From positions 1-48,194 of the forward strand of contig JAOZPA010000002.1 in the NCBI GenBank assembly GCA_029932985.1: a stretch of DNA of 48,194 nucleotides. The letters are read 5' to 3'. Each line of letters begins with the position of its first letter. Position 1 is the first letter of the stretch. Shown here piece by piece: positions 8,233 to 30,067 of this stretch. A program made the translations under genes and the position numbers. This DNA is from Campylobacterales bacterium. GTDB lineage: Bacteria; Campylobacterota; Campylobacteria; Campylobacterales; JAOZPA01. Under the pieces are notes generated by a model, which saw nothing but the letters and a program-made list of their open reading frames with translations, did not search any database and was not told the origin of the DNA.

Positions 8233-10206
8233 ATGGCAGTTATTAATATAAAAACCAGTTTAAAAGAGAGTTTGGCAATTTTGAGTGAAAAAGAGTATGG
8301 AGCGAAGTTTTTTAAGGCGGATTTGCATTTTCATACACCAGCTTCTGAGGATGCGAGGGGAAGTAATCGTTATAATTTTAATCCATATAAAAATGTAAAA
8401 TATCCTCCTCACGATTATTCGTGGGAGCATCACGAGAAGATTCAGGCGATTCAAAATGAGGTTTTAAAAGATGCTAAGAAGTTGGCTAAAGAGATGGTGG
8501 AGCAGTTTTTAGCTAAGGGGTTGTCGCTGGTTGCGGTTACTGACCATAATGGAATTGGTACGATTTGGGCGGATGCTAGAGATACGGTGAGAACGAGTAT
8601 GGATTTGGCAGCTCCCACTTGGTATGAGTTGATTTGTGATGAGGCGGAGAAGATTAATCACGAGTTGGGCAAGAAAAAGATTACGATTTTGGCGGGGGTT
8701 GAAATAAGTACGGTAGGTGTGCATATTTTGGCGATTTTTCCACCACACAATCCTCCACGGAAAATTCATTTTATCATTTCGGAGCTTTTAAATGAGATTG
8801 GTTTTTCGATTGATGAGATGGGGCGAAATCCAAAAGTGGGCAAGGCAAGTATCTATAATACGATTGAGTTGATTCATCAAAAGGGTGGTTTGCCAATTAT
8901 TGCACATATTGATGGGAGTGACCAAGCTTTGTTGAAAAATTATGAATTAACTTCGGGGGCAATGAAAAATGTGCTGTTGCATAAGAATCTTCAAGCGGTG
9001 GAGATTGTGAAGCCTAGACGTTTTACCAGAAAAGATAGGAAACTCAAAAAAACTGTTGACCAGTGGATTCAAACTCTGCGAAAAAAAAAGAATCTGTCGG
9101 GAATTGCATATTTTCAGGGTTCAGATGCCCACGACCTAAAAAGTATTGCTAAACGGTTCACCTATGTCAAGATGACTGAGCCTACTTATGGGGGATTGAT
9201 TAATGCGATTAATTCACCCTCTTCACGGGTGAGGGTCTCGGAACTTTATGAGCCTCCTCAAAATAAACTTTTTATCCACGGACTAGAGATAAAGAGTAAA
9301 TATTTTGGTCATCAATATATCCGTTTTAATCGTCATTTAAACTGTCTGATTGGGCGGAAAGAGTCGGGCAAATCCTATTTTTTTAAGTTGATGCAAAAGG
9401 CTATTGGTAAATCTACCGTAGATGGTGATGCTACCCTGTTTATTGAAAATATAGTGGATGGTCGGTCGATTTTATATGCTTTTAATAGTGCTAAAAATAG
9501 TTTGTATCGGGTCAAAAAGTCTCGGGGACGGACATATATTAGAGAGTTAAAAAATGATTCGCCAGAGATGGAAGCATTGAAGCCGAAGTTTTTTAATGCC
9601 GATAAGATTAATCTGTTGATTAGTTCTAGTGAAAAAATTAATGCTTTTTTGATTAAAAAATTTGGAAATCCCACTATCACAAATATCAATAGATTTAATA
9701 GAATTTTTGCAATTCCTCAAATGCTTTCGGGCGAAGATGAAAGTTTTTTGATGGTCAAAAATGTACGAGGCAAATATCAACTTCTTCATAATATCAATTG
9801 GCGAAGTGGCAAAAGGCTTAAAAATATCAATTTTTTTAAATTAAGTAATAGTATCCGTCGGATTATGATTATTGCGATGTTGGTGGTGGATAATCTCAAT
9901 GGTCCGCTGATTATCGATGCCCCTGAGGAGTATTTTGATAATGAAGATATTGCGAACTATCTCATACCGATAATCACTCAATACAAAAATACTCAACAGA
10001 TAATAATCTCTACTGGTAGCTCCATTTTGGCGGTCAACTCTGACCCTGAGAATTATATCATTTTAAATACATCTATGAATAAATTTCAAAGCATCGAATC
10101 AGGTTTTGCAATCGATAAACAATCTCAAAAAGAGCGAATTATCCGTTTGGTAGAGGGGAATGTGAAAGCATTTCAAAAAAGAGCAATTCGTTATAATGAA
10201 AATTAA
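8233..10206 (+). CDS. PHP-domain phosphoesterase fused to an SMC/ABC-type ATPase (Ppl / TrlF-like single-gene defence candidate)
   Basis: N-terminal PHP motifs: DLHFHTPASED, AVTDHN, GVEIST, IIAHIDGSD, GSDAHD. C-terminal ATPase: SMC-like head LFIHGLEIKSKYFG..FNRHLNCLIGRKESGKSYFF (Walker A), signature-like KLSNSIRR, and Walker B LIIDAPEEYFDNEDI. Confidence 0.7.
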   Translation: MAVINIKTSLKESLAILSEKEYGAKFFKADLHFHTPASEDARGSNRYNFNPYKNVKYPPHDYSWEHHEKIQAIQNEVLKDAKKLAKEMVEQFLAKGLSLVAVTDHNGIGTIWADARDTVRTSMDLAAPTWYELICDEAEKINHELGKKKITILAGVEISTVGVHILAIFPPHNPPRKIHFIISELLNEIGFSIDEMGRNPKVGKASIYNTIELIHQKGGLPIIAHIDGSDQALLKNYELTSGAMKNVLLHKNLQAVEIVKPRRFTRKDRKLKKTVDQWIQTLRKKKNLSGIAYFQGSDAHDLKSIAKRFTYVKMTEPTYGGLINAINSPSSRVRVSELYEPPQNKLFIHGLEIKSKYFGHQYIRFNRHLNCLIGRKESGKSYFFKLMQKAIGKSTVDGDATLFIENIVDGRSILYAFNSAKNSLYRVKKSRGRTYIRELKNDSPEMEALKPKFFNADKINLLISSSEKINAFLIKKFGNPTITNINRFNRIFAIPQMLSGEDESFLMVKNVRGKYQLLHNINWRSGKRLKNINFFKLSNSIRRIMIIAMLVVDNLNGPLIIDAPEEYFDNEDIANYLIPIITQYKNTQQIIISTGSSILAVNSDPENYIILNTSMNKFQSIESGFAIDKQSQKERIIRLVEGNVKAFQKRAIRYNEN

Positions 10207-18871: not shown

Positions 18872-18958
18872 GCCTAAGTGGTGAAATTGGTAGACACGCT
18901 AGACTCAAAATCTGGTTACAGCAATGTAGTGTCGGTTCGAGTCCGACCTTAGGTACCA
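18872..18958 (+). tRNA. tRNA-Leu (anticodon CAA), type II with long variable arm, CCA encoded
   Basis: Cloverleaf folded by eye. Acceptor GCCTAAG/CTTAGGT (G1-U72). Anticodon stem CTAGA/TCTGG with loop CTCAAAA. T-arm GTCGG-TTCGAGT-CCGAC. Discriminator A plus CCA. Confidence 0.9.
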
Positions 18959-21226: not shown

Positions 21227-22090
21227 TTAATGTTTTTTTAGAAACTTATGCAGAAAGGTTTGTTCCAAAATAAATACCATATAACCAATCGCTAACCCCA
21301 AAATCATATCAAAAAGTATAGATGGTAAAAAACCTAAAGTATCAGTTTGCAAGTGGTGTAAAAATTCTATGTTGTGAGAGAAGATTCCACCTGCGACTAA
21401 AATCATAGCGATAGTCCCCACAACGGACAAAAATTTTATAATTATAGGTAAAGATTTAACCATAAGTTCACCAAACATATCCTTAAATGTACCCTCTTTG
21501 CTGGTTCGGATTAGGTAAAATCCCATATCATCCATTCTAACTAAAAATGCTACAATCCCATAAACTCCGACCGTTGCCAAAAGTGCCACAAACGAAACTG
21601 CTACAATTTGCACACTCAAAGAGTGGGTCATCACAGCCCCTAAAGCAATTACAACTATCTCAATTGACAAAATAAAATCGGTTAAAATTGCTGATTTTAT
21701 CTTTTTCTCTTCAGATAATACCACTTTATTTTCATTGTGAGGTTTTTTCAAAATTTTATGCTCAATATATTCATGTATTTTTTCAGCTCCCTCAAAAGCC
21801 AAATAAAGCCCACCTAAAATTAAAATAGGGGCGATAATCCACGAAACATAAGCACTCAATAAAAAAGCCAAAGGCAAAATAATAAGCTTATTTTTAAAAG
21901 AGCCTTTTGTAATTTTCCAAAGTACAGGAAGTTCACGAGAAGCATGAAATCCTGCTGCTTTTTGAGCATTTACCGCCAAATCATCACCTAAAATTGGTGC
22001 AGTTTGTTTAATTGAAATTTTTGTAACCATCGCTGCATCATCTAAAAGAATTGCTATATCATCAAGTACAGCAAATATTCCACCTGTCAT
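21227..22090 (-). CDS. DUF808 (YedI-like) inner-membrane protein
   Basis: Characteristic N-terminus MTGGIFAVLDDIAILLDDAAMVTK followed by multiple TM segments. Confidence 0.75.
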   Translation of the reverse strand: MTGGIFAVLDDIAILLDDAAMVTKISIKQTAPILGDDLAVNAQKAAGFHASRELPVLWKITKGSFKNKLIILPLAFLLSAYVSWIIAPILILGGLYLAFEGAEKIHEYIEHKILKKPHNENKVVLSEEKKIKSAILTDFILSIEIVVIALGAVMTHSLSVQIVAVSFVALLATVGVYGIVAFLVRMDDMGFYLIRTSKEGTFKDMFGELMVKSLPIIIKFLSVVGTIAMILVAGGIFSHNIEFLHHLQTDTLGFLPSILFDMILGLAIGYMVFILEQTFLHKFLKKH

Positions 22091-22150
22091 TTTTTATCCT
22101 TTTTATCTAAAATATCTCTATTGATAGGGTGCTTTTGCCCAACAATAACC

Positions 22151-22810
22151 CTACATTTGATGAATCTGTTTATGAATCTCACTCTCTGTAAGTTTATCTT
22201 TATTCGTATATTTTTTCATCCAAAACCAGATGAGACCTATGAAAATAATTACAATTGGGATTGCAATATACCAGTGTTCCTTTGCTTTTGCGATGAGGTC
22301 TAAAATCTCTTTGCCATAAAGATAGGCGGGGAGTATGGTTATACCTGCCCAAGCCCAAGCACTAAAGAGGTTTATGAAAGCAAATTTTTTACCACTGTAT
22401 CTGGTGAGTCCAATTGACATTGGGATGATAGTTCTTAAACCGTACATATATCGTTGGATGAAGATGATGGGCCAACCATATTTTTTGAGGAGGAGGTGGG
22501 CGAGAGCAAATTTTCGTTTTTGCTTGTGAAGTTTTCGCTGAATGTAGCCTTTATTGTAGCGACCGATGTAGAAATAGATTTGGTCACCTGCAAATCCGCC
22601 GAGACCTGCGATGAAGATTGCCATATAGAGATTCATATCGCCCGAATAGCAGAGGATTCCGCCGAGGAGCAAACCGATTTCACCCTCTAAAATGCTCCAT
22701 AGAAAGAGGATTATGTAGCCATAGGCAACTAAAAGTCCTGCAAAATATTGGACAAGTTCGCCGTGGTCTTTGACTAAATCTACAAGTGATGTTACTGCTT
22801 GTGCTTCCAA
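22151..22810 (-). CDS. DedA-family membrane protein
   Basis: EGEIGLLLGG, GDQIYFYIGR and FIQRYMYGLRTIIP blocks. TTG start only 9 nt downstream of the preceding stop. Confidence 0.85.
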   Translation of the reverse strand: MEAQAVTSLVDLVKDHGELVQYFAGLLVAYGYIILFLWSILEGEIGLLLGGILCYSGDMNLYMAIFIAGLGGFAGDQIYFYIGRYNKGYIQRKLHKQKRKFALAHLLLKKYGWPIIFIQRYMYGLRTIIPMSIGLTRYSGKKFAFINLFSAWAWAGITILPAYLYGKEILDLIAKAKEHWYIAIPIVIIFIGLIWFWMKKYTNKDKLTESEIHKQIHQM

Positions 22811-22819
22811 AAGTTACCT

Positions 22820-23449
22820 TTATTTAAAAATTTGTAAAATGAAATTTGTGATTGGTTTGAAATTGGGGTGAGATAAATTCCAAAGCCCAGTATCTATATA
22901 ATTTTCCTTATATTTGTACATAAATGAATTTTGTGGTTTATGGAAATTTTCACCTTTTTGTGAATACATAGTATAAGCATAAACTTGACCCTTATTTAAT
23001 ACCTTTTCATATATATGGTTATTTTTTTCAAGACATTCTTGATATGGTTCAAAACATTTTATGATATTGTTATCTTTAATTGTCGATAATAGAAGTATTT
23101 CTAAATCTCCTAAATCTTTATTATTTGGAGTTAAAAAGATTTTAATTTTTTCTTTGTCAATCCTTGAATCTTCAATTGCATTTTCAATATTTGCTTTAGA
23201 TTCCTTAAAATCATCATCTGCATCTTGGATTATTCCAATTCTTGAAATTCTATCCTCTCCTAGTTTTAAAAATTTTAATTTTTTTAATAAATTATCTTGT
23301 CCACCTAAATTAATTATTGTTAAATTATTGTATAGATACTCATTCTTTATTTTTTGAAAATCATCAAAGCTAGATATAAAACTATTCTTTAAACAGATAT
23401 ATTTTACAAAAGCTACATCCATAATTCCCTCAACAATTAAATAATTCAT
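22820..23449 (-). CDS. small TOPRIM-like protein (DUF3226 / DUF4435 / RloB-like), predicted nuclease partner of the ATPase
   Basis: N-terminal strand YLIVEGIMD (conserved Glu), acidic cluster IGIIQDADDD (DxD), later LGDLEILLL. 209 aa. The ATG overlaps the upstream stop (ATGA at 23446-23449). Very AT-rich. Confidence 0.6.
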   Translation of the reverse strand: MNYLIVEGIMDVAFVKYICLKNSFISSFDDFQKIKNEYLYNNLTIINLGGQDNLLKKLKFLKLGEDRISRIGIIQDADDDFKESKANIENAIEDSRIDKEKIKIFLTPNNKDLGDLEILLLSTIKDNNIIKCFEPYQECLEKNNHIYEKVLNKGQVYAYTMYSQKGENFHKPQNSFMYKYKENYIDTGLWNLSHPNFKPITNFILQIFK

Positions 23450-24456
23450 CTTATTCTTGCCCCCATTTCAACTCCATAGGAAAAATTACCATAATCCATA
23501 ACAATAGGTATAATTTTATTCTCTTCATTTTTATATAATTCAATTAAAGTTATCTTTTCATAATTTAACTCTTCACTAGCTTCATTTAATGCTTCTATTG
23601 TTTCATAATCGTGAGTGGTCACAAAAAGTTGAATATTCTCTTTTTCTGCAATCTCTATAATCGCTTTCCAAATATCTTTTAATTTTGAATGATGAATTCC
23701 ATTTTCTATCTCATCTATTAATATAGTACCATTTTGCTTTGTTAAAATAGTTGCAAGAATTTCTATAAATCTATTAGTCCCCTCACCAAGTTCTGAAGAT
23801 ATAATTGATAATTTCGGATTTTCTAAATTTATTCTTAAAAAAGCATCTCTTTCTCCCCTAATCTGTGGCTCTACTCCAACTATATTTTTATCTAAGATTT
23901 GTAAATATTCTAAAAATTTATGCTGAATTCCTAAGTCTTGAATATTGGAATAAAGTTTTGTTAAATTAGAATTATTTGGTTTAGAAGAATCAATAAAAAT
24001 CGCTTTTTTTTCTCCTCTATAAAATAATCCCGTACTTATTCCTCTATTTGTATAGGGTCTAAATGGAAATATTTCTAACTTATCACTATCTTTATATAAA
24101 ATTATAAACTCTTCAACTTCTCTATATCTATCAATTTTTTGGATTTCAATATCATTTAATTCATCTATAAATTTATGTTTGATTTTTATATTAATATTGT
24201 TATATTTTAAATTTATATTGATATTTTGTAGATATTTATCAATTTCATCACGATTTAATCCTCTATTTCTAAATAAAGTTTCAAGCAAGGAGATAAACAT
24301 TCTTAAATTATCACTACTATTTATTAAATAAATTAACTCCAATAGTGCAGTTTTTCCAACATTATTTTTACCCGTAATAATATTTATTTTACTTAATCCC
24401 TCAACTTTAAAATCTTGAAAACATTTATAATTTTCAATTTCAAAATCTTTTATCAC
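23446..24456 (-). CDS. ABC/SMC-type ATPase (AAA_21/AAA_15-like; OLD-, AriA-, AbiLi-like)
   Basis: Head IKDFEIENYKCFQDFKVEGLSKINIITGKNNVGKTALLE (Walker A), signature-like SSELGEGTNRF, Walker B TILIDEIENGIHH, H-loop LFVTTHD. GTG start 6 nt after GAGGAG. Confidence 0.8.
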   Translation of the reverse strand: MIKDFEIENYKCFQDFKVEGLSKINIITGKNNVGKTALLELIYLINSSDNLRMFISLLETLFRNRGLNRDEIDKYLQNININLKYNNINIKIKHKFIDELNDIEIQKIDRYREVEEFIILYKDSDKLEIFPFRPYTNRGISTGLFYRGEKKAIFIDSSKPNNSNLTKLYSNIQDLGIQHKFLEYLQILDKNIVGVEPQIRGERDAFLRINLENPKLSIISSELGEGTNRFIEILATILTKQNGTILIDEIENGIHHSKLKDIWKAIIEIAEKENIQLFVTTHDYETIEALNEASEELNYEKITLIELYKNEENKIIPIVMDYGNFSYGVEMGARIR

Positions 24457-24483
24457 AATCCACTCCTCATTAAAATAAGTAAT

Positions 24484-24489
24484 AATTAT
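24484..24489 (-). promoter_or_regulatory. candidate -10 box (TATAAT on the - strand) for the ATPase/TOPRIM cassette
   Basis: ATTATA on the + strand is TATAAT on the - strand, about 28 nt upstream of the GTG start, in an AT-rich spacer. Pattern match only. Confidence 0.3.
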
Positions 24490-24662
24490 AACTAATATCT
24501 AGTTAAACAGGGCTTTATCAGCAGTTTTTAAGCTTATTAAAAAATTAAATTACCCATTTTAAGATAAAAATTTATGCTCAAAATTATCATCAAAATAGCT
24601 TTTTATAAGTTGAAATTTTATATCTATTGGATAGAATAAAGAAAATTTTTATAGGAGAATAT

Positions 24663-25220
24663 ATGAAAAAATTTCTGTTGCCAGTATTTATGGCTTTTAT
24701 CTTCGCAGGTTGCGTTAGTAGCTCCCCAGAAGGTTACACTTTGTCGGTTAGTCCCCAAACTTTGCAAGAAAATGTAGCAAAAGAGTTCCCGATTCAAAAA
24801 GATTTGGCAGTTGGTAGTATAAAATTGCAAGAGCCAAAGATTGGTCTAAAAGAGGGTAGTGATAGGATGCAAACGGCTATAAATTTCACCTATAAGCCAC
24901 CATTTCTATCTGCTCAAACAGGTACAATTGACCTTTCTGGTCAAATTAAATATGATAAAAAACGGTCAGCTTTTTATCTTTTGAAGCCTGAAGTAGATGA
25001 GTTGAAATTTAATGAAACTTCATTGACAACCAAAATTTTTACTAGTATAAAAAGTTTAAATAAGGGTGTTATGCAAAAAGTGATTGATGGTGTTTTTCAA
25101 CAATTTCCAATCTATAAATTAGCTCCAAATACTCTAAGTGGTAAGTTATTGCAAAAAACAGTCAAAGATGCCAAAATTAAAAATGGTCAACTTCTGATAA
25201 CTTTTGGAATGCCAGAATAG
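24663..25220 (+). CDS. DUF1439 (YceB-like) lipoprotein
   Basis: Lipobox MKKFLLPVFMAFIFAGC after AGGAGAATAT. The body resembles YceB-type proteins (YTLSVSPQTLQENV..., SAFYLLKPEVDELKF). The track ORF starts at an upstream TTG (24627). Confidence 0.6.
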   Translation: MKKFLLPVFMAFIFAGCVSSSPEGYTLSVSPQTLQENVAKEFPIQKDLAVGSIKLQEPKIGLKEGSDRMQTAINFTYKPPFLSAQTGTIDLSGQIKYDKKRSAFYLLKPEVDELKFNETSLTTKIFTSIKSLNKGVMQKVIDGVFQQFPIYKLAPNTLSGKLLQKTVKDAKIKNGQLLITFGMPE

Positions 25221-25237
25221 ATTTTAAAGGTTTATGA

Positions 25238-25269
25238 CCCCCAACGGAAATATGAATTTCCGTTGGGGG
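25238..25269. terminator. perfect 14-bp hairpin between convergent genes
   Basis: CCCCCAACGGAAAT - ATGA - ATTTCCGTTGGGGG. It lies between the DUF1439 stop (25220) and the M50 stop (25278). Confidence 0.65.
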
Positions 25270-25277
25270 ACTGAAAT

Positions 25278-25961
25278 CTAATTCAACAACATATTTAAAA
25301 CCATCCACGCAGGGGCAACAATAAATATCTCTTTTAGAAAATCAATATAGAGGATAGCGATTAAAATCAGCATTCCATACATTCCTACTTTTTGATTCCA
25401 TTCATAAATTTTAGTTGTTCCCAGTTGTAATCCTAAATAACTTAGGGCATTTGCTCCATCAAGCGGAGGGATTGGATAGGCATTGAAAATTGCCAAAAGA
25501 ATATTGTACAAAAAGCTATAAGATATAAAATATATATAAAATGGATAATTTACCTCTGTAGAAGGCTCTACAACAGATAGAATATGCATATTTATTCCTG
25601 TATAAAATTCTAGGATAGTAATCATAATAAAAGCTAAAAGAAGATTGTAGAAAATTCCTGCCATACTTACCCAAACTCCAGCCATAAATCCACCATTATT
25701 TATAACTCTATCTATTCTGATAGGAACAGGTTTTGCCCAACCAAATGGAAATCCTAAGGAAAAATAGAGAAGGGCTGGGAGGATAATTGTACCAAATAGG
25801 TCAATATGGACGATTGGATTTATGCTAAGTCGCCCCAAAGATTTCGCCGTGTCATCTCCATATTTATATGCAGTCCAACCATGCATAATTTCGTGACCCA
25901 CAATCGCCACAAGCAGAGCTAAAATCATCGCCAAAATTTGGTATATATTAAAATTGTCCAT
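25278..25961 (-). CDS. M50-family (site-2 protease-like) membrane metalloprotease
   Basis: HEIMHGWTA (HExxH) in a TM helix, plus NAYPIPPLDG (NxxPxxxLDG). Confidence 0.8.
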   Translation of the reverse strand: MDNFNIYQILAMILALLVAIVGHEIMHGWTAYKYGDDTAKSLGRLSINPIVHIDLFGTIILPALLYFSLGFPFGWAKPVPIRIDRVINNGGFMAGVWVSMAGIFYNLLLAFIMITILEFYTGINMHILSVVEPSTEVNYPFYIYFISYSFLYNILLAIFNAYPIPPLDGANALSYLGLQLGTTKIYEWNQKVGMYGMLILIAILYIDFLKEIFIVAPAWMVLNMLLN

Positions 25962-25963
25962 TT

Positions 25964-27175
25964 TTATTCATTCCTTAAAGTTGATAAAACATCGATATTT
26001 GTCGCTCGTTTGGCTGGATAATAGGAGGAGAGAAATACTATTAAAATTGAGCCGATAAGTATGCTAAAAAAATCGATTGTGGATAAAACAATAGGGAGCT
26101 TTGATGTGCCATAAACCTCTTTTGGCAAGGTGATAATGTTAAATGTATCTAAAATATACATTGAGAAAAAGCCCAACATCACTCCTACTATAATTCCCGT
26201 TCCGCCAATTGTGATACCCAAATAAAAAAATGTTTTTCGGATTTCACTTTTGTAAGCCCCAAGCGAAAGTAGCAAAGCGATTTCTCGTCGTCGGCTCATC
26301 ACGGTCATAAGAAGTGAGCTGATTATGTTTAGAGATGCCACCACCACGATGAGGGTTAAGATGATGAAAAGTGCCTTTTTTTCGAGGGCGAGGGCTGCAA
26401 AAAATGTGCCGTTGAGTTCCCACCATCCCACAACTTTAGCATAGGGAGGTAGAGCTTGTTTGATTTTTTTAATATCTTCCATCGGATTTTCTGAAAATAT
26501 GTGAATTCCATCATAGACACCTTTTGGGTAGCCCAAAATAATTCGCAAAGATTCGAGTGAAGTGAACATATAGCTGGTGTCATAATCTCGAAGCCCAGAA
26601 TCAAAAATTCCTGCGATTTCAAACCGTTTCATTCGGGGCATAACACCCAAACCTGCAGGGTCTATATCGGTAAAAAGCAGAGTGACTTTCTCATCCATCC
26701 CCACCAAAAAAAGCTCCTCTTGCATCCCTTTGCCCATAACTAAATTGAACTTTGAGATATTTTGGCTATCCCCTCCAATCGCATCTGAGATAAATCTATT
26801 TGCTTTGATTTCACGGCTAAAATCCACTCCATAAATCACTCCACCTGCAAGTTGCCCATTTTGTTTTGCCATCGCTTGAGAATAGATGTAGGGGCTGAAA
26901 ATCATATCTGGAAACTGCTTATCAAAGGAGACCAAATCACTACTACTAATACCTTGCTGGGCAAATGGGACGATGGTCATAGGGTAATTCATGGTAGAAA
27001 TTTTTTCTTCAAAATCCTTAATCATACCGCTCATAATCGCCATCGCCACCATCAATACTGCCACCCCAATCATCACCCCGATAAATGCAAGACCTGCACT
27101 AATTGTGATGAACGGCTGAGATTTATCAAATCTCAAATATCTTCTAATTAAATATGGAACTAACTTTTTTTGCAA
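25964..27175 (-). CDS. lipoprotein-releasing ABC transporter permease (LolC/LolE, FtsX-fold)
   Basis: N-terminus YLIRRYLRFDKSQPFITI, a large periplasmic loop, and a C-terminal FtsX-type 3-TM bundle ending YYPAKRATNIDVLSTLRNE. Confidence 0.85.
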   Translation of the reverse strand: MQKKLVPYLIRRYLRFDKSQPFITISAGLAFIGVMIGVAVLMVAMAIMSGMIKDFEEKISTMNYPMTIVPFAQQGISSSDLVSFDKQFPDMIFSPYIYSQAMAKQNGQLAGGVIYGVDFSREIKANRFISDAIGGDSQNISKFNLVMGKGMQEELFLVGMDEKVTLLFTDIDPAGLGVMPRMKRFEIAGIFDSGLRDYDTSYMFTSLESLRIILGYPKGVYDGIHIFSENPMEDIKKIKQALPPYAKVVGWWELNGTFFAALALEKKALFIILTLIVVVASLNIISSLLMTVMSRRREIALLLSLGAYKSEIRKTFFYLGITIGGTGIIVGVMLGFFSMYILDTFNIITLPKEVYGTSKLPIVLSTIDFFSILIGSILIVFLSSYYPAKRATNIDVLSTLRNE

Positions 27176-27468
27176 TTTCTCTCACTTTTTTATTTTTAAT
27201 TTTGTAACTACTTAGGCTCAATTGCCCCACACGAAAATTTTTTTTAATAATTTTTTTGTCTAAATATAAACAATACTAAAATAATCATATATCCCTTATA
27301 TATCAACTCCCTAGTATTTTGCAAATGCCTCATCAATCCCCAAACCCTGCTTTTTTTCTATATTTTTCATAAAATTCTTCTTCAATATTAAGTTTAATTG
27401 CATACATCTTTGCTCCTTTTTAATATTTTGTATTTTTTGGACTAACAACCCCAAACGGAAATTTTATT

Positions 27469-27711
27469 TTAGTTGATATATTTTATTAAAACTTCATCTC
27501 CATTAATTAATTTTTCAAAATCTTCTTTTTTATTGATAATCATTTCATTGTAACTTAATTCCGTGCCTGAGGTTGGTTTTTCATTAAAATCTTCACAACT
27601 TATCAATTTCCTAATTCCACCAAAACACCAAGTAGCCTCTCGCTTATTCCATTTAAACGAACCCTTACAATCCCCCTTATCCTCTTTTGCCCGATTAATT
27701 GCTTTTTCCAT
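27469..27711 (-). CDS. hypothetical 80-aa protein
   Basis: ORF only. It lies 32 nt downstream of the NfeD-like gene in the same orientation and contains three Cys. No recognisable motif. Confidence 0.35.
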   Translation of the reverse strand: MEKAINRAKEDKGDCKGSFKWNKREATWCFGGIRKLISCEDFNEKPTSGTELSYNEMIINKKEDFEKLINGDEVLIKYIN

Positions 27712-27743
27712 CGCCTCTTTACCTCGTTTTTGGAATTTATGGG

Positions 27744-28400
27744 TTAAATTTTCACTTTTCGATTATAAACTTTATCCCATAAACTAATATCCACATAAAA
27801 AATATTTGAATTTTTCATCTTTTGCACCACCAAAACTCTATCGCCCTCAAGGTATTGTTCATTTTCATTAAATGGCTCAACTCTCACATAGTGTTCACTT
27901 TTAAATTCATCAATTAATTTCGCCCGAGCTGGGTAATCTCTTTTTGAAATTTTATCGATAATCGTTGCTTCTTTACCTATAAAACTATCTACTCCTACAG
28001 CTTCAGTTTCAAGTTTTGGTAAAATTAAAGATAAAAATGAGGAGATATATCTCAATAAAAAAAATGTCAGAATTAGTGAGATTGGTATAGTCGCCGTTAG
28101 GGGCATATAACCCAAAGTATCTTGAATCATCGCACCAAAAAAACTAAACATAAAAAACATCACCATCAAAAGCATACTAAATGGAACTTTTTTGGGATTG
28201 ATATAAGCGAAAAAAGAACCTATGCTAAATGTCGAGCCGTCGATGTCCATATCATGGTCAATTCCCAAATCAATATCATTTAGAAAGTCAAAAACACCAA
28301 TTCCAATCAGCAAAGAGATGATTTCAAATGCTACAAATATGAGAAAAACTGCCCCCAAAATGGAGAATGGGAGCATTCGATAATCGAGAAAAAATTCCAT
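27744..28400 (-). CDS. YqiJ/NfeD-like membrane protein (partner of flotillin)
   Basis: Several TM helices, an acidic loop DIDLGIDHDMDIDG, and a C-terminal soluble beta-rich (OB-like) tail. Sits 2 nt after the flotillin gene. Confidence 0.6.
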   Translation of the reverse strand: MEFFLDYRMLPFSILGAVFLIFVAFEIISLLIGIGVFDFLNDIDLGIDHDMDIDGSTFSIGSFFAYINPKKVPFSMLLMVMFFMFSFFGAMIQDTLGYMPLTATIPISLILTFFLLRYISSFLSLILPKLETEAVGVDSFIGKEATIIDKISKRDYPARAKLIDEFKSEHYVRVEPFNENEQYLEGDRVLVVQKMKNSNIFYVDISLWDKVYNRKVKI

Positions 28401-28402
28401 CT

Positions 28403-30067
28403 TTAGCCTTTTTTATTTTTGTGTTTGAGGATATTCCCCCTCACCATATCTTCTAGATTTTCAATTCCAACTGCATCTTTTAGCCCCGTCTCTTTGAGCA
28501 AATCATCTATCAATGCCCCACCGATTTTATAATTCATCATCGCTTCGGTCAACTGTTCAGGCAGTGAATTTGTAGAATCATTTGAGCCATTAGTCCCCGC
28601 ACCATTTATCATATTTTGATTGCTATTTCCCATATCGACAATCTTTATGCTATCAATTTTTTCCGCAGGTTTGACCATCATCTCAATAATATTTGGCAAT
28701 TCACGAATCAAATCTATCTGTATCTCTTTGTGAATCTGCTCAGTAGAAAGTGCATTTAAAGCCTCATTTTTCTTTCTCTCACCCTCAGCATCCACCTCAT
28801 ACTCCTTCTCCTTTGCCATCGCATGAATCTTAATCGCCTCAGCCTCACCTTCAGCTTGAATTTTTACAGCTTGAGCCTTATCCAACGATGCTTCTTTTTC
28901 AGCAAGAGCCAAAATCTTTTTGGTCACCGCCTCCTTTTCTGCCTCTTGACTAGCCTCGATAATCGCCAAATCCTTATATCTTTTAGCAATCTCCATCTCA
29001 CGAGCTGTCACAATCTCCTCTTTAGTTTTTGCCTCTTTAGCCTCTGCCACATTCGCCTCACTTCGAGCCGCCGCTTCATCTTTGATTTTTTGAGAAATTT
29101 TAATATTTTTATCCTGCAATGCGATTTTTAAAACTTCCTCTTTTTTAATCTTTGCAGACTCAATCTCTTTAGTTTTTTCAATCTCTTTTTGTTGCAACTC
29201 TTTATCTTTTTGAATAATAGCAAAGTCAATCGCTTTATTATCTGAGATTTCAACTTCACGAGATTCACGAGCTTTATGTGTCTGTTCAATCTTAATTTTA
29301 GATTTTTGCTCCGCTTTTGCAAACTCCTCCGATTGATTAATCGACAAACTTTCTTTTGCTGTTTCCATTCTTTTCCGCTCAATCAAAACCCGTGTGCTTT
29401 CCTCTATATCCACTCGTTCTTTTCGTTTCGCTTCTGTAATCTCCGCAATTTTTTTGAGTCCTTGGGCATCAAACGCATTTGATTCATTAAAATATTCAAT
29501 ATTCGTTTGGTCAAGCGAGGTCAATGAAACCGACTCTAGCTCAAGTCCATTTGTATCTAAATCCTCACTAACTGTATTTGAAACTTGCTGAACAAAATCT
29601 TTTCTCTCTTGATGTAAATTTTCCATAGTGGTTTGAGATGCCACCGACCGCAAAGAATCTACCAGTTTTCCCTCAATTAAATCTTTCAAATCATCAGGAT
29701 TTAAAGTTTTTTGCCCCAAAGTTGAAGCTGCTCGTGAAATTGAATCTTTGTCTCTTTTGACACGAATAAAAAACTCTACAATCACATCAACTTTGAGTTT
29801 ATCGGAAGTTATCAATGCTTGTTCTTTTGTCCGAACCACCACTAATTTCAGAGTATTCAAATTTATTTTTGTCAAATCGTGTACCATCGGAAGCACTATC
29901 GACCCACCATCCAAAATTACCCGAGACCCACCAAGTCCAGTCCGTACAAATGCTCTCTCTTTAGTTGTTTTTTTGTAAATCCTCACAAAAATCACACCAA
30001 TAACAATAATCAATAAAACTAATCCAACTGCATAGAGTTGTATTGTGCTAAAACTACTCAAATTCAT
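28403..30067 (-). CDS. flotillin / SPFH-domain protein (YqiK-like)
   Basis: N-terminal TM, then an SPFH domain, then a long Ala/Glu/Lys-rich coiled coil (EAKEAKTKEEIVTAREMEIA...). Confidence 0.85.
   Translation of the reverse strand: MNLSSFSTIQLYAVGLVLLIIVIGVIFVRIYKKTTKERAFVRTGLGGSRVILDGGSIVLPMVHDLTKINLNTLKLVVVRTKEQALITSDKLKVDVIVEFFIRVKRDKDSISRAASTLGQKTLNPDDLKDLIEGKLVDSLRSVASQTTMENLHQERKDFVQQVSNTVSEDLDTNGLELESVSLTSLDQTNIEYFNESNAFDAQGLKKIAEITEAKRKERVDIEESTRVLIERKRMETAKESLSINQSEEFAKAEQKSKIKIEQTHKARESREVEISDNKAIDFAIIQKDKELQQKEIEKTKEIESAKIKKEEVLKIALQDKNIKISQKIKDEAAARSEANVAEAKEAKTKEEIVTAREMEIAKRYKDLAIIEASQEAEKEAVTKKILALAEKEASLDKAQAVKIQAEGEAEAIKIHAMAKEKEYEVDAEGERKKNEALNALSTEQIHKEIQIDLIRELPNIIEMMVKPAEKIDSIKIVDMGNSNQNMINGAGTNGSNDSTNSLPEQLTEAMMNYKIGGALIDDLLKETGLKDAVGIENLEDMVRGNILKHKNKKG

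Follow-up and report, generated by a model that had tools for sequence, protein, structure and literature searches.

The 48,194-nt stretch of Campylobacterales DNA analysed here, referred to as the window, carries on its minus strand a compact cassette of two genes, an upstream one coding for an ABC-type ATPase and a downstream one coding for a DUF3226 protein, whose coordinates are collected in Table 1 together with their motifs and expression signals. Both reading frames and their overlap had been proposed in an earlier sequence-only reading, and the ORF coordinates and a script agree on them; the ATGA overlap suggests translational coupling of the two genes. The DUF3226 gene ends with TAA and is separated by 9 nt (AGGTAACTT) from the TTG of the dedA ORF, a gap that script-based verification bore out. 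The Shine-Dalgarno sequence and the TATAAT-like box attributed to the cassette itself are indeed present ahead of the ATPase gene. A native promoter of the pair is plausible only, since the box at 24485-24490 has no -35 partner, and is therefore unlisted in the sigma-70 scan, and since promoter-like sites in the cassette region are no commoner than in shuffled sequences (16 versus 20.5 +/- 5.2, i.e. no excess). No terminators were found within 22000-25300, and hence the transcript ends are undefinable.

Table 1. Features of the ATPase/DUF3226 cassette, with positions counted from the first letter of the window
Feature	Position	Strand	Remarks
ABC-type ATPase gene	23446..24456	-	336 aa, GTG start; AAA_21/AAA_15 family, AbiLi / PDC-M38A-like
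DUF3226 protein gene	22820..23449	-	209 aa, ATG start; N-terminal TOPRIM-like domain (~residues 1-122) and conserved helical C-terminal half
ATGA stop/start overlap of the two genes	23446..23449	-	4 nt; script-verified
Shine-Dalgarno GAGGAG	24463..24468	-	6 nt ahead of the ATPase GTG; script-verified
TATAAT box, putative -10	24485..24490	-	within the 170-nt intergenic region 24457-24626
Walker A GKNNVGKT	24349..24372	-	G29, N31, N32, G34, K35 invariant
ABC signature-like SSELGEGT	23776..23799	-	S221 to G226 invariant
Walker B / D-loop TILIDEIENGIH	23692..23727	-	D248, E249 invariant
H-loop VTTHD	23608..23622	-	T280, T281, H282 invariant
TOPRIM strand 1 YLIVEGIMD, catalytic-type Glu	23417..23443	-	E7, D11 at least 90% conserved
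TOPRIM DxD GIIQDADDD, end of strand 3	23210..23236	-	D76, D78 invariant
GDLEILLL after strand 4, further conserved acidic residue	23087..23110	-	G114, L116, E117 invariant

The upstream gene encodes an ATPase of the ABC/SMC-head class, compact in size, whose catalytic motifs are complete and conserved and follow the order Walker A, Q-loop (Q173, invariant among the aligned homologs), signature, Walker B with the catalytic Glu, and H-loop. All of the motifs quoted at the outset for this protein were located and their key residues found conserved. Conservation was judged for both proteins over 39-42 homologs, and as the key residues are invariant or nearly so, the motifs of the ATPase and of its partner are not due to chance. 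The assignment to the ABC/SMC class is upheld by Pfam matches above cutoff to AAA_21 (70 bits, cutoff 27, 4.9e-19) and AAA_15 (61.3 bits, cutoff 32.1, 1.7e-16), and by ABC heads among the Foldseek matches of an AF2 model (pLDDT 89.7) that has no long coiled coil. Top structural matches at E ~1e-10 are the retron-Eco8 effector, GajA, PtuA, OLD and SMC/Rad50 heads, and PDB entries matched include 9lpa_B (2.4e-11), 8u7i_A and 6p74. Among PADLOC models, the best match is AbiLi PDLC02336 (168.7 bits, 5.9e-50), which aligns over residues 1-331 of the protein and 1-335 of the 340 model positions, and PDC-M38A is matched partially (142 bits, 6.8e-42; residues 80-323).

The small protein is a full-length match to Pfam DUF3226 PF11536 (70.6 bits, cutoff 27; residues 2-208 against model positions 2-207 of 208), a family matched by 42/42 relatives, and such partners are labelled in RefSeq as 'DUF3226 domain-containing protein'. 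It also matches PADLOC PDC-M38B (35.8 bits, 1.6e-9), as do all 42 relatives, with a partial alignment whose best stretch is N-terminal (3-95), and AbiLii PDLC02338 (5.1e-7), again partially (residues 50-159 against model positions 10-99 of 125), a match that recurs in 29/42 relatives. OLD-like_TOPRIM PF20469 scores 13.5 bits, below its 23.2 cutoff, and similar sub-threshold matches occur in 36 of the 42 relatives, with a best E-value of 1.7e-4. Pfam RloB gave no match to the small protein at E<=1 and is absent from the families listed for the relatives. The AF2 model (pLDDT 93.1) contains elements E2-6, H9-21, E43-47, H51-62, E70-77, H81-95 and E102-107, i.e. the order b1-a1-b2-a2-b3-a3-b4, with E7 directly after b1 and D76/D78 ending b3. 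Its best PDB and viral matches in Foldseek are TOPRIM domains, namely T7 primase (1nui, prob 0.99), Topo I and DnaG, with weak E-values (8.6e-3 at best, TM ~0.3); no OLD, GajA or AriB structure occurs among its Foldseek matches, and searches of its sequence and family profile against the PDB returned nothing meaningful. The model thus predicts a stand-alone TOPRIM-type fold with a Glu / DxD / Glu acidic constellation. This agrees with the TOPRIM-like character first read from LIVEGIMD, IIQDADDD and LGDLEILLL, all of which were located, with the Glu and DxD conserved. The GDLEILLL segment aligns with PGAIEDLII of a plasmid-borne DUF3226 protein. The C-terminal half contains the invariant residues C132, C139, K153, Y159, D186 and W190 and matches no solved structure.

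Relatives sharing the sizes and the overlapping-gene layout are numerous, with more than 100 close ones and ~1,500 wider clusters at 50% identity. Wherever the gene upstream of a DUF3226 gene is on the contig, it encodes an AAA_21 ATPase, with stop and start overlapping or abutting. The sequence-only reading had called the pair unusually small and divergent, a description that is not supported: the DUF3226 family spans 170-235 aa (the longest of the best 150 representatives having at most 234 aa), the family ATPases 318-371 aa, and the small protein matches the family model over its full length. Likewise, the suggestion of an undescribed minimal member or new family is contradicted by the existing Pfam family, RefSeq annotation and PADLOC models for both proteins, and novelty would have needed the pair to escape existing AbiL models, which the ATPase at least matches with a high score. 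The pair is therefore an ordinary addition to a known class and not a new family. Within this class, since the PDC-M38 models are matched only partially, the window proteins form a divergent Campylobacterota/SUP05 subfamily, which comprises just 6 clusters at E<=1e-30. Members of the class are also found on more than 130 ColRNAI (ColE1-type) plasmids of ~4 kb from Klebsiella and E. coli, where the pair of ATPase and DUF3226 genes is nearly the sole cargo. This enterobacterial pair matches PDC-M38A and PDC-M38B over their full length and is homologous to the window pair, its DUF3226 protein being homologous to the window small protein from end to end (hhalign, 94.6%). These plasmid relatives surfaced only via the ATPase search; tblastn with the small protein gave no match among plasmids, and neither tblastn of 50,697 phage records nor a comparison with PHROGs yielded a relative of it.

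The cassette has a GC content of 0.235, whereas the window averages 0.325, and is the lowest-GC 1.6 kb of the window: when 932 sliding windows of 1637 bp were compared, just 4 had values as low, with the minimum inside the cassette, and its GC3 is 0.13-0.16 as compared to 0.20-0.43 for nearly all other genes. The contrast originally drawn between an AT-rich cassette and a GC-richer dedA stands as regards the cassette (23.5%), although dedA as a whole has 40% GC and not 48%. In 8/8 other loci, the GC of the pair lies 6-15 points under that of the flanks. About ten distinct contexts were observed for the pair, mostly housekeeping ones, including the junctions PALP|dedA, ispG|dnaB, pepP|folK and response regulator|kinase, and it often runs in the same direction as the housekeeping genes, with little space between them. 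Most contexts have no other defence or mobile genes close by; one relative's locus adjoins genes for an MmeI-type RM system, a PLD-SNF2 helicase and an AlbA_2 protein. For the empty-site argument, recourse was had to the orthologous PALP|dedA junction of related lineages, since none of 185,579 species representatives is closer than ~75% DedA identity. In six related genomes PALP abuts dedA (-8 to +12 nt) without the pair, and in L001 the pair sits exactly between these two genes. On composition and junctions, then, the pair is to be regarded as a horizontally acquired, inserted AT-rich cassette, and the proposal of an insertion made from the sequence is sustained. As to insertion scars, the flanks of the cassette show no convincing repeats, whether direct or inverted; the only flanking pair (I5, 22 nt, 77% complementary) falls within the coding sequence of neighbours and is chance-like. 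Integration linked to a tRNA was discarded as well, the sole tRNA (Leu-CAA, 18872-18958) being ~4 kb distant. There is an outside chance that DUF3226-type pairs represent a mechanistically distinct branch of the OLD/PARIS superfamily, with the conserved C-terminal half possibly conferring a new substrate or trigger specificity, and with a possibly unusual mode of spread as scarless, co-directional cassettes of housekeeping operons, many of which have no evident promoter themselves. On this reading, spread in naturally competent Campylobacterota would presumably proceed via homologous recombination of conserved flanks, and in enterobacteria via ColE1 plasmids with the pair as sole cargo.

ABC ATPase + TOPRIM pairs such as PARIS, AbiL, MADS3-4, OLD and Gabija are defence systems (PMC11464382, PMC10568477, PMC13064643), and comparison with them delimits the type of the window pair. 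The closest counterpart is the PADLOC candidate PDC-M38, both models of which are matched by the adjacent window genes with agreement in gene order and sizes, even though these matches are partial (A 80-323; B best over 3-95) and those of the enterobacterial plasmid pair full length. PDC-M38 is one of 145 PADLOC 'phage defence candidates', and its models go back to genes that lie within known defence systems; HEC-01, the sole ATPase+TOPRIM candidate tried by the same authors, gave no protection (bioRxiv 10.1101/2024.01.29.577857). No paper in the literature searched mentions either DUF3226 or PDC-M38. AbiL of Lactococcus, composed of the AbiLi ATPase and the RloB-like TOPRIM protein AbiLii, has the two-gene layout in common with the window pair, and the ATPase matches AbiLi end to end; however, the match to AbiLii is weak and partial, and the partner there is RloB-like whereas here it is a DUF3226 protein. 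No Lactococcus plasmids were among the tblastn matches of the ATPase. PARIS (AriA and AriB) likewise combines a split ABC ATPase (AAA_15/21) with a TOPRIM effector in adjacent genes. Its AriA has coiled-coil inserts and a mass of ~53-55 kDa, and its AriB is a DUF4435 protein of 35 kDa (PMC11464382). Membership in PARIS was rejected: neither Pfam nor PADLOC gives a DUF4435/AriB match, the partner has 209 aa, and the 336-aa ATPase has no coiled-coil insert. The sole AriA models matched by the ATPase (PDLC02980/02979) mirror Pfam AAA_21 and AAA_15 in model length and coordinates. The type envisaged from the sequence, a split ATPase+TOPRIM module akin to OLD, PARIS and AbiL, is sustained, but the pair is not PARIS itself.

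OLD, Gabija GajA and the retron Eco8 effector have ATPases of the same ABC clade and a TOPRIM domain with Glu and DxD, but there both are fused in proteins of 500-750 aa, whereas the window pair consists of two ORFs. A fused OLD nuclease was rejected, as each of these ORFs has a start and a stop codon to itself and as the PF20469 score is sub-cutoff. Comparison of P2 Old with the family profile by hhalign was uninformative, covering only the strand-1 region (VEGxTD versus VEGKTE of Old) at 2.6% probability. MADS Mad3/Mad4 and Menshen NsnB/NsnC have a similar layout of an AAA_21-type ATPase and a small stand-alone DUF4276 TOPRIM protein, but the window pair has no associated methylase or NsnA; DUF4276 was shown to be a TOPRIM domain, as is RloB (PMC12065111). 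MADS was also set aside, as the ATPase reaches 59.7 bits with MAD3 NF047739, whose cutoff is 420, and the small window protein has no DUF4276 or mad4 match; the plasmid DUF3226 protein matches the mad4 model weakly (4e-4).

By analogy, a phage-defence or addiction cassette is the most likely identity of the pair, and overall it is probably a horizontally acquired split ABC-ATPase + TOPRIM conflict module of the DUF3226 type, PDC-M38 / AbiL-like, consisting of a sensor ATPase and a nuclease effector. Following PARIS, OLD and Gabija, the ATPase would act as the sensor or regulator and would probably dimerise or oligomerise on ATP, thereby restraining the nuclease. A phage-derived cue or lost homeostasis would then release or activate the metal-dependent TOPRIM nuclease, whose cleavage of nucleic acid (DNA or tRNA) would stop phage replication, probably at a cost to the cell. 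On the small plasmids that carry it, the pair would by the same logic serve as an addiction module. Nuclease activity, its substrate, the trigger and the interaction between ATPase and nuclease are all inferred from such analogies. Several observations count against the conflict module: the contexts are mostly housekeeping operons, phage relatives of the small protein are missing from the collections searched, HEC-01 did not protect, the TOPRIM Foldseek E-values are weak and come without OLD, GajA or AriB matches, and the OLD-like_TOPRIM score stays under its cutoff.

Other explanations differ from the conflict module in control, in purpose or in kind. A constitutive OLD/Gabija-like nuclease complex, nucleotide-gated and attacking foreign DNA directly, would be a sub-variant of it that departs from a PARIS-like, trigger-released effector in control mode only. 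The recurrent sub-threshold OLD-like_TOPRIM matches, an E7/D11, D76/D78 and E117 pattern that fits the multi-acidic metal site of OLD nucleases, and the presence of GajA and OLD among the best structural matches of the ATPase all point that way; yet the two proteins are separate and without the OLD dimerisation and helical inserts, and no OLD or GajA TOPRIM domain appears among the Foldseek matches of the small protein. This sub-variant is possible but rather doubtful. It seems unlikely that selfish addiction of the toxin-antitoxin kind is the primary role of the pair, in which case the TOPRIM nuclease would be the toxin and the ATPase its neutraliser, serving self-maintenance on plasmid or chromosome and not phage defence. 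Its near-exclusive place as cargo on tiny ColRNAI plasmids, the chromosomal copies that usually stand alone in housekeeping operons outside defence islands, and the action of PARIS itself as a type II TA pair (PMC13064643) favour such a role, but the location of one relative within a restriction/helicase island and the origin of the PDC-M38 models that match both proteins speak for defence, and the two roles are not mutually exclusive.

Very improbable is a housekeeping DNA-repair or recombination mediator like RecF/RecR, kept where canonical RecF is missing, e.g. in Campylobacterota. The sizes and domain classes do run parallel (RecF, ABC ATPase of ~360 aa; RecR, TOPRIM protein of ~200 aa), the N-terminal 48 residues of the ATPase match RecF TIGR00611, and the pair is often packed co-directionally among housekeeping genes. 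However, the ATPase reaches 32.7 bits with TIGR00611, whose cutoff is 172, neither RecR nor any other NCBIfam model matches the small protein, and the best-scoring models are those of defence ATPases. The pair is moreover missing at the orthologous sites of the six related genomes, its GC is anomalously low in all hosts and it occurs on ColE1 plasmids; a repair role is thus largely refuted by the patchy distribution.

In itself, the window pair matters little, as it adds a Campylobacterota example to the catalogued DUF3226 / PDC-M38 class. The class as such is compact (~1.6 kb) and widespread, with ~1,500 clusters at 50% identity and hundreds of small plasmids of clinical isolates. If a phage-defence or plasmid-addiction phenotype proved true, it would define a new named system, and what many cryptic Klebsiella ColE1 plasmids carry would thereby be accounted for.

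In the sequence, GAGGAG and a 6-nt spacer precede the GTG of the ATPase gene, and the TAA of the small-protein gene is followed after 9 nt by the TTG of a DedA/VTT-domain ORF, with genes for DUF808 and EF-hand proteins continuing on the same strand. Every element of the layout described in the sequence-only reading, that is the overlapping ORFs, the ATGA, the ribosome-binding site and its spacing, the TATAAT and the gap to dedA, was verified (Table). No terminator-like sites were found around the cassette, and because promoter-like sites there were not enriched over shuffled sequences, the TATAAT hexamer is just a plausible -10 element. Expression of dedA in the window may by now rely on transcripts that read through out of the cassette.

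The ATPase matches Pfam AAA_21 (4.9e-19) and AAA_15 (1.7e-16), and it is an intact, conserved ABC ATPase. In an alignment of 39 homologs with 46-59% identity, the Walker A residues G29, N31, N32, G34 and K35, Q173, the ABC signature S221-E-L-G-E-G226, D248 and E249 (Walker B and catalytic Glu) and T280, T281 and H282 of the H-loop are all invariant, in agreement with the complete motif set reported earlier. Its AlphaFold model (pLDDT 89.7) contains no long coiled coil, and the Foldseek neighbours are ABC heads, with the retron Eco8 effector at 2.4e-11 and SMC and cohesin heads, GajA, PtuA, Rad50 and Thermus OLD among the other best matches. The top PADLOC model is AbiLi PDLC02336, matched end to end at 5.9e-50, followed by five models of PDC-M38A (down to 1.1e-21); further matches are to NsnB, HEC-01A/02A, GajA, PtuA and AriA models, the last having lengths and match coordinates that mirror Pfam AAA_21 and AAA_15.

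The small protein had been considered unusually small and possibly the founder of a new family. Neither point holds, since it belongs to the curated Pfam family DUF3226 over its full length (70.6 bits against a cutoff of 27, with residues 2-208 aligned to model positions 2-207 of 208). Its close relatives form 111 clusters, all DUF3226, of 192-230 aa and 41-67% identity, from Sulfurimonas, Sulfurovum, Arcobacteraceae and SUP05/Thioglobus. A family profile search of 1.84 billion representatives gave 1,525 clusters at E<=1e-3, of which 312 reach E<=1e-10, and none of the best 150 of the 1,525 exceeds 234 aa; therefore none of these is fused to an ATPase, and 209 aa is a normal length for the family. 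A TOPRIM-type acidic site is intact and conserved on this separate protein: E7 and D11 (VEGxxD) are at least 90% conserved and D76 and D78 of the D76-A-D78 motif are invariant, with S84, F105-L-T-P108 and G114-D-L-E117 also conserved. The AlphaFold model (pLDDT 93.1, pTM 0.90) predicts the order b1(2-6)-a1-b2(43-47)-a2-b3(70-77)-a3-b4(102-107), with E7 directly after b1 and D76/D78 closing b3, which in the model is the TOPRIM signature as defined in PMC12065111. In Foldseek no close structural relative was found, nothing reaching E<=1e-3, yet TOPRIM domains lead both the PDB and the viral matches: T7 primase (1nui, probability 0.99), DnaG, E. coli Topo I, primases of phages and an RloB-like protein. 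The earlier TOPRIM-like call is supported by the predicted fold. Sub-threshold matches to OLD-like_TOPRIM occur in 36 of 42 relatives; PADLOC PDC-M38B matches the protein (1.6e-9) and 42/42 relatives, and AbiLii matches it partially (5e-7) and 29/42 relatives. The protein has no Pfam match to DUF4435, RloB or DUF4276, and nothing was found for it in a sequence search of the PDB, by tblastn against phage and plasmid records, or in PHROGs. The C-terminal half (about residues 123-209), which matches nothing known, is conserved as well, including C132, C139, K153, Y159, D186 and W190.

Features of the cassette and gene order at related loci (L numbers, loci of relatives carrying the pair; P0008, a DUF3226 relative)
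Feature or locus	Coordinates	Strand	Description
ATPase ORF, window	23446..24456	minus	GTG start, 336 aa
Small-protein ORF, window	22820..23449	minus	ATG start, 209 aa
ATGA overlap of the two ORFs		minus	read from sequence
TATAAT hexamer, window	24485-24490		inside 170-nt intergenic region shared with divergent DUF1439 gene
DedA/VTT-domain gene by pair, window	22151-22810	minus
DedA/VTT-domain gene by pair, L001	8644-9378
DedA/VTT-domain gene by pair, P0008's contig			DUF3226, dedA, pepA; same downstream order as L001
Pair, L001	7033-8642		PALP, pair, dedA, pepA
Pair, L088 and L046			PALP, pair, two extra genes ... dedA, pepA
Pair, L003 and L097			ispG, pair ... dnaB
Pair, L092			ispG, pair; contig ends before dnaB
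Pair, L005-L007 (SUP05)			erpA, pair, gltA
Pair, L095	7000-8660		pepP, pair, folK; DUF3226 stop overlaps folK start
Pair, L096	2489-4149		response regulator, pair, histidine kinase
Pair, L098			adjoins second AAA_21 gene and 394-aa protein
Pair, L090			beside MmeI-type RM, AlbA_2 protein, PLD-SNF2 helicase

The overlapping pairing of ATPase and DUF3226 genes is obligate: at every sampled locus whose contig includes the upstream gene, a 318-334-aa AAA_21 ATPase precedes the DUF3226 gene, with stop and start overlapping or abutting. The pair is typically co-directional within housekeeping operons, with overlaps or gaps of at most about 40 nt. No integrase, transposase or repeats were found near the operon-wedged pairs of L095, L096 and L001. 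Directly 3' of the pair in L098 (3973-6092), a 306-aa AAA_21 ATPase and a 394-aa protein without Pfam match may form another two-gene system travelling with it; a 394-aa protein, likewise without Pfam match, follows the pair in L091 (7710-8894). In L090 (7850-14663) the neighbours are a 1166-aa MmeI_Mtase/Eco57I/TaqI_C protein, a helicase with PLD and SNF2 domains and a protein combining SLFN/AlbA_2 with HATPase_c_4, a setting that resembles a defence island of the restriction or DISARM type. In L097, the stop of the DUF3226 gene is directly adjoined by a 77-aa ORF (8660-8893) of the NTP_transf_2/Polbeta (MNT-like) type, and a Y1_Tnp (IS200-like) gene (1324-1674) lies within the nuo/hydrogenase cluster of the same contig.

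A PALP orthologue (80-83% identical) abuts dedA, at -8 to +12 nt, in six Campylobacterota genomes, and this junction is the empty site for the arrangement of L001. Of the genomes available, the closest to the window locus reaches about 75% DedA identity at best, and hence insertion in the window is deduced from composition and related loci. The pair lies directly upstream of dedA in three diverged lineages (2-9 nt gap or 4-nt overlap) and about 3 kb upstream in a fourth (L088, L046). This repeated position points either to an old insertion that was later lost in places or to spread by recombination of conserved flanks, the site being either a recurrent target or that of an ancient insertion.

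The distribution of the pair is patchy, compositionally foreign and includes small plasmids. At 23.5% GC against 32.5% for the window, the cassette is its lowest-GC 1.6-kb stretch (GC3 0.13-0.16), and at each of the eight further loci examined, GC in the pair lies 6-15 points under that of the flanks. The low GC noted earlier thus stands, while the 48% quoted for dedA was a single-line value and the gene overall has 40%. Similarly low is a 131-aa ORF at the window edge (36-431, minus; GC 0.247, GC3 0.144), which matches the N-terminal part of GmrSD_N (DUF262; 5.2e-27, model 2-116 of 199), a restriction-endonuclease domain, and could be either another acquired gene of the defence type or a fragment. 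A further AT-rich patch (27150-27750, GC 0.25-0.26) holds an 80-aa ORF without Pfam match (27469-27711, minus), with two genes, for YqiJ (NfeD-like) and flotillin, lying downstream of it as a pair (27744-30067).

By tblastn, the ATPase matched 148 plasmid records, most of them from Klebsiella and E. coli and of the ColRNAI type at ~4 kb. An ATPase + DUF3226 pair is present on more than 130 such ColRNAI plasmids (~4-8 kb, clinical isolates of both), which apart from it, Rop and an HTH protein carry almost nothing else, and in several records the gene is wholly unannotated at the match. On plasmid NZ_CP082125.1 (635-2382), the gene of a 371-aa ATP-binding protein overlaps that of a 210-aa protein annotated as 'DUF3226 domain-containing protein'. 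This plasmid pair matches AbiLi (196 bits) and DUF3226 (94 bits), and its matches to PDC-M38A and PDC-M38B are full-length. Along its entire length the plasmid DUF3226 protein aligns with the window family (hhalign 94.6%), with VEGxxD, DADxxF and P..G.hE.L in register.

Judged by its profile matches, the window pair is DUF3226 + AAA_21 and corresponds to PADLOC PDC-M38, one of 145 candidates that were put forward on guilt-by-embedding and are explicitly untested (bioRxiv 10.1101/2024.01.29.577857). Its ATPase fits the AbiLi model but its partner is not RloB, and so the pair would be AbiL only loosely. The novelty proposed in the sequence-only reading is withdrawn, as the ATPase gave a high-scoring AbiL model match; with this match and a curated Pfam partner, the pair therefore belongs to a known kind. 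PARIS was rejected (no DUF4435, no AriA inserts), as was fused OLD. The ATPase reached no NCBIfam equivalog (MAD3 59.7 against 420 bits, RecF 32.7 against 172 bits), and MADS was rejected on this MAD3 score and the missing DUF4276 match.

In PARIS, AriB is sequestered by an AriA hexamer until a trigger and ATP release the tRNA-cleaving TOPRIM protein (PMC11464382), and in OLD/Gabija a two-metal TOPRIM nuclease is regulated by an ABC ATPase (PMC10568477). By analogy with these and AbiL, the window pair would probably be an ATPase-regulated TOPRIM nuclease conflict module, PARIS-like or OLD-like in action. The ATPase would sense or regulate, and the effector would be the DUF3226 protein, a metal-dependent nuclease acting on DNA or tRNA, whose activation would halt phage replication, probably abortively. 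A plasmid-borne pair of this architecture would function as an addiction module; that the pair is purely such a module is unlikely, and it is just as doubtful that it combines a distinct effector specificity with an operon-wedging mode of spread. A RecF/RecR-like housekeeping pair is highly improbable, being contradicted by distribution, composition and the failed equivalog scores. A literature search for DUF3226 systems found no paper reporting a test, and the remaining interest lies in this and in the family being both compact and widespread.
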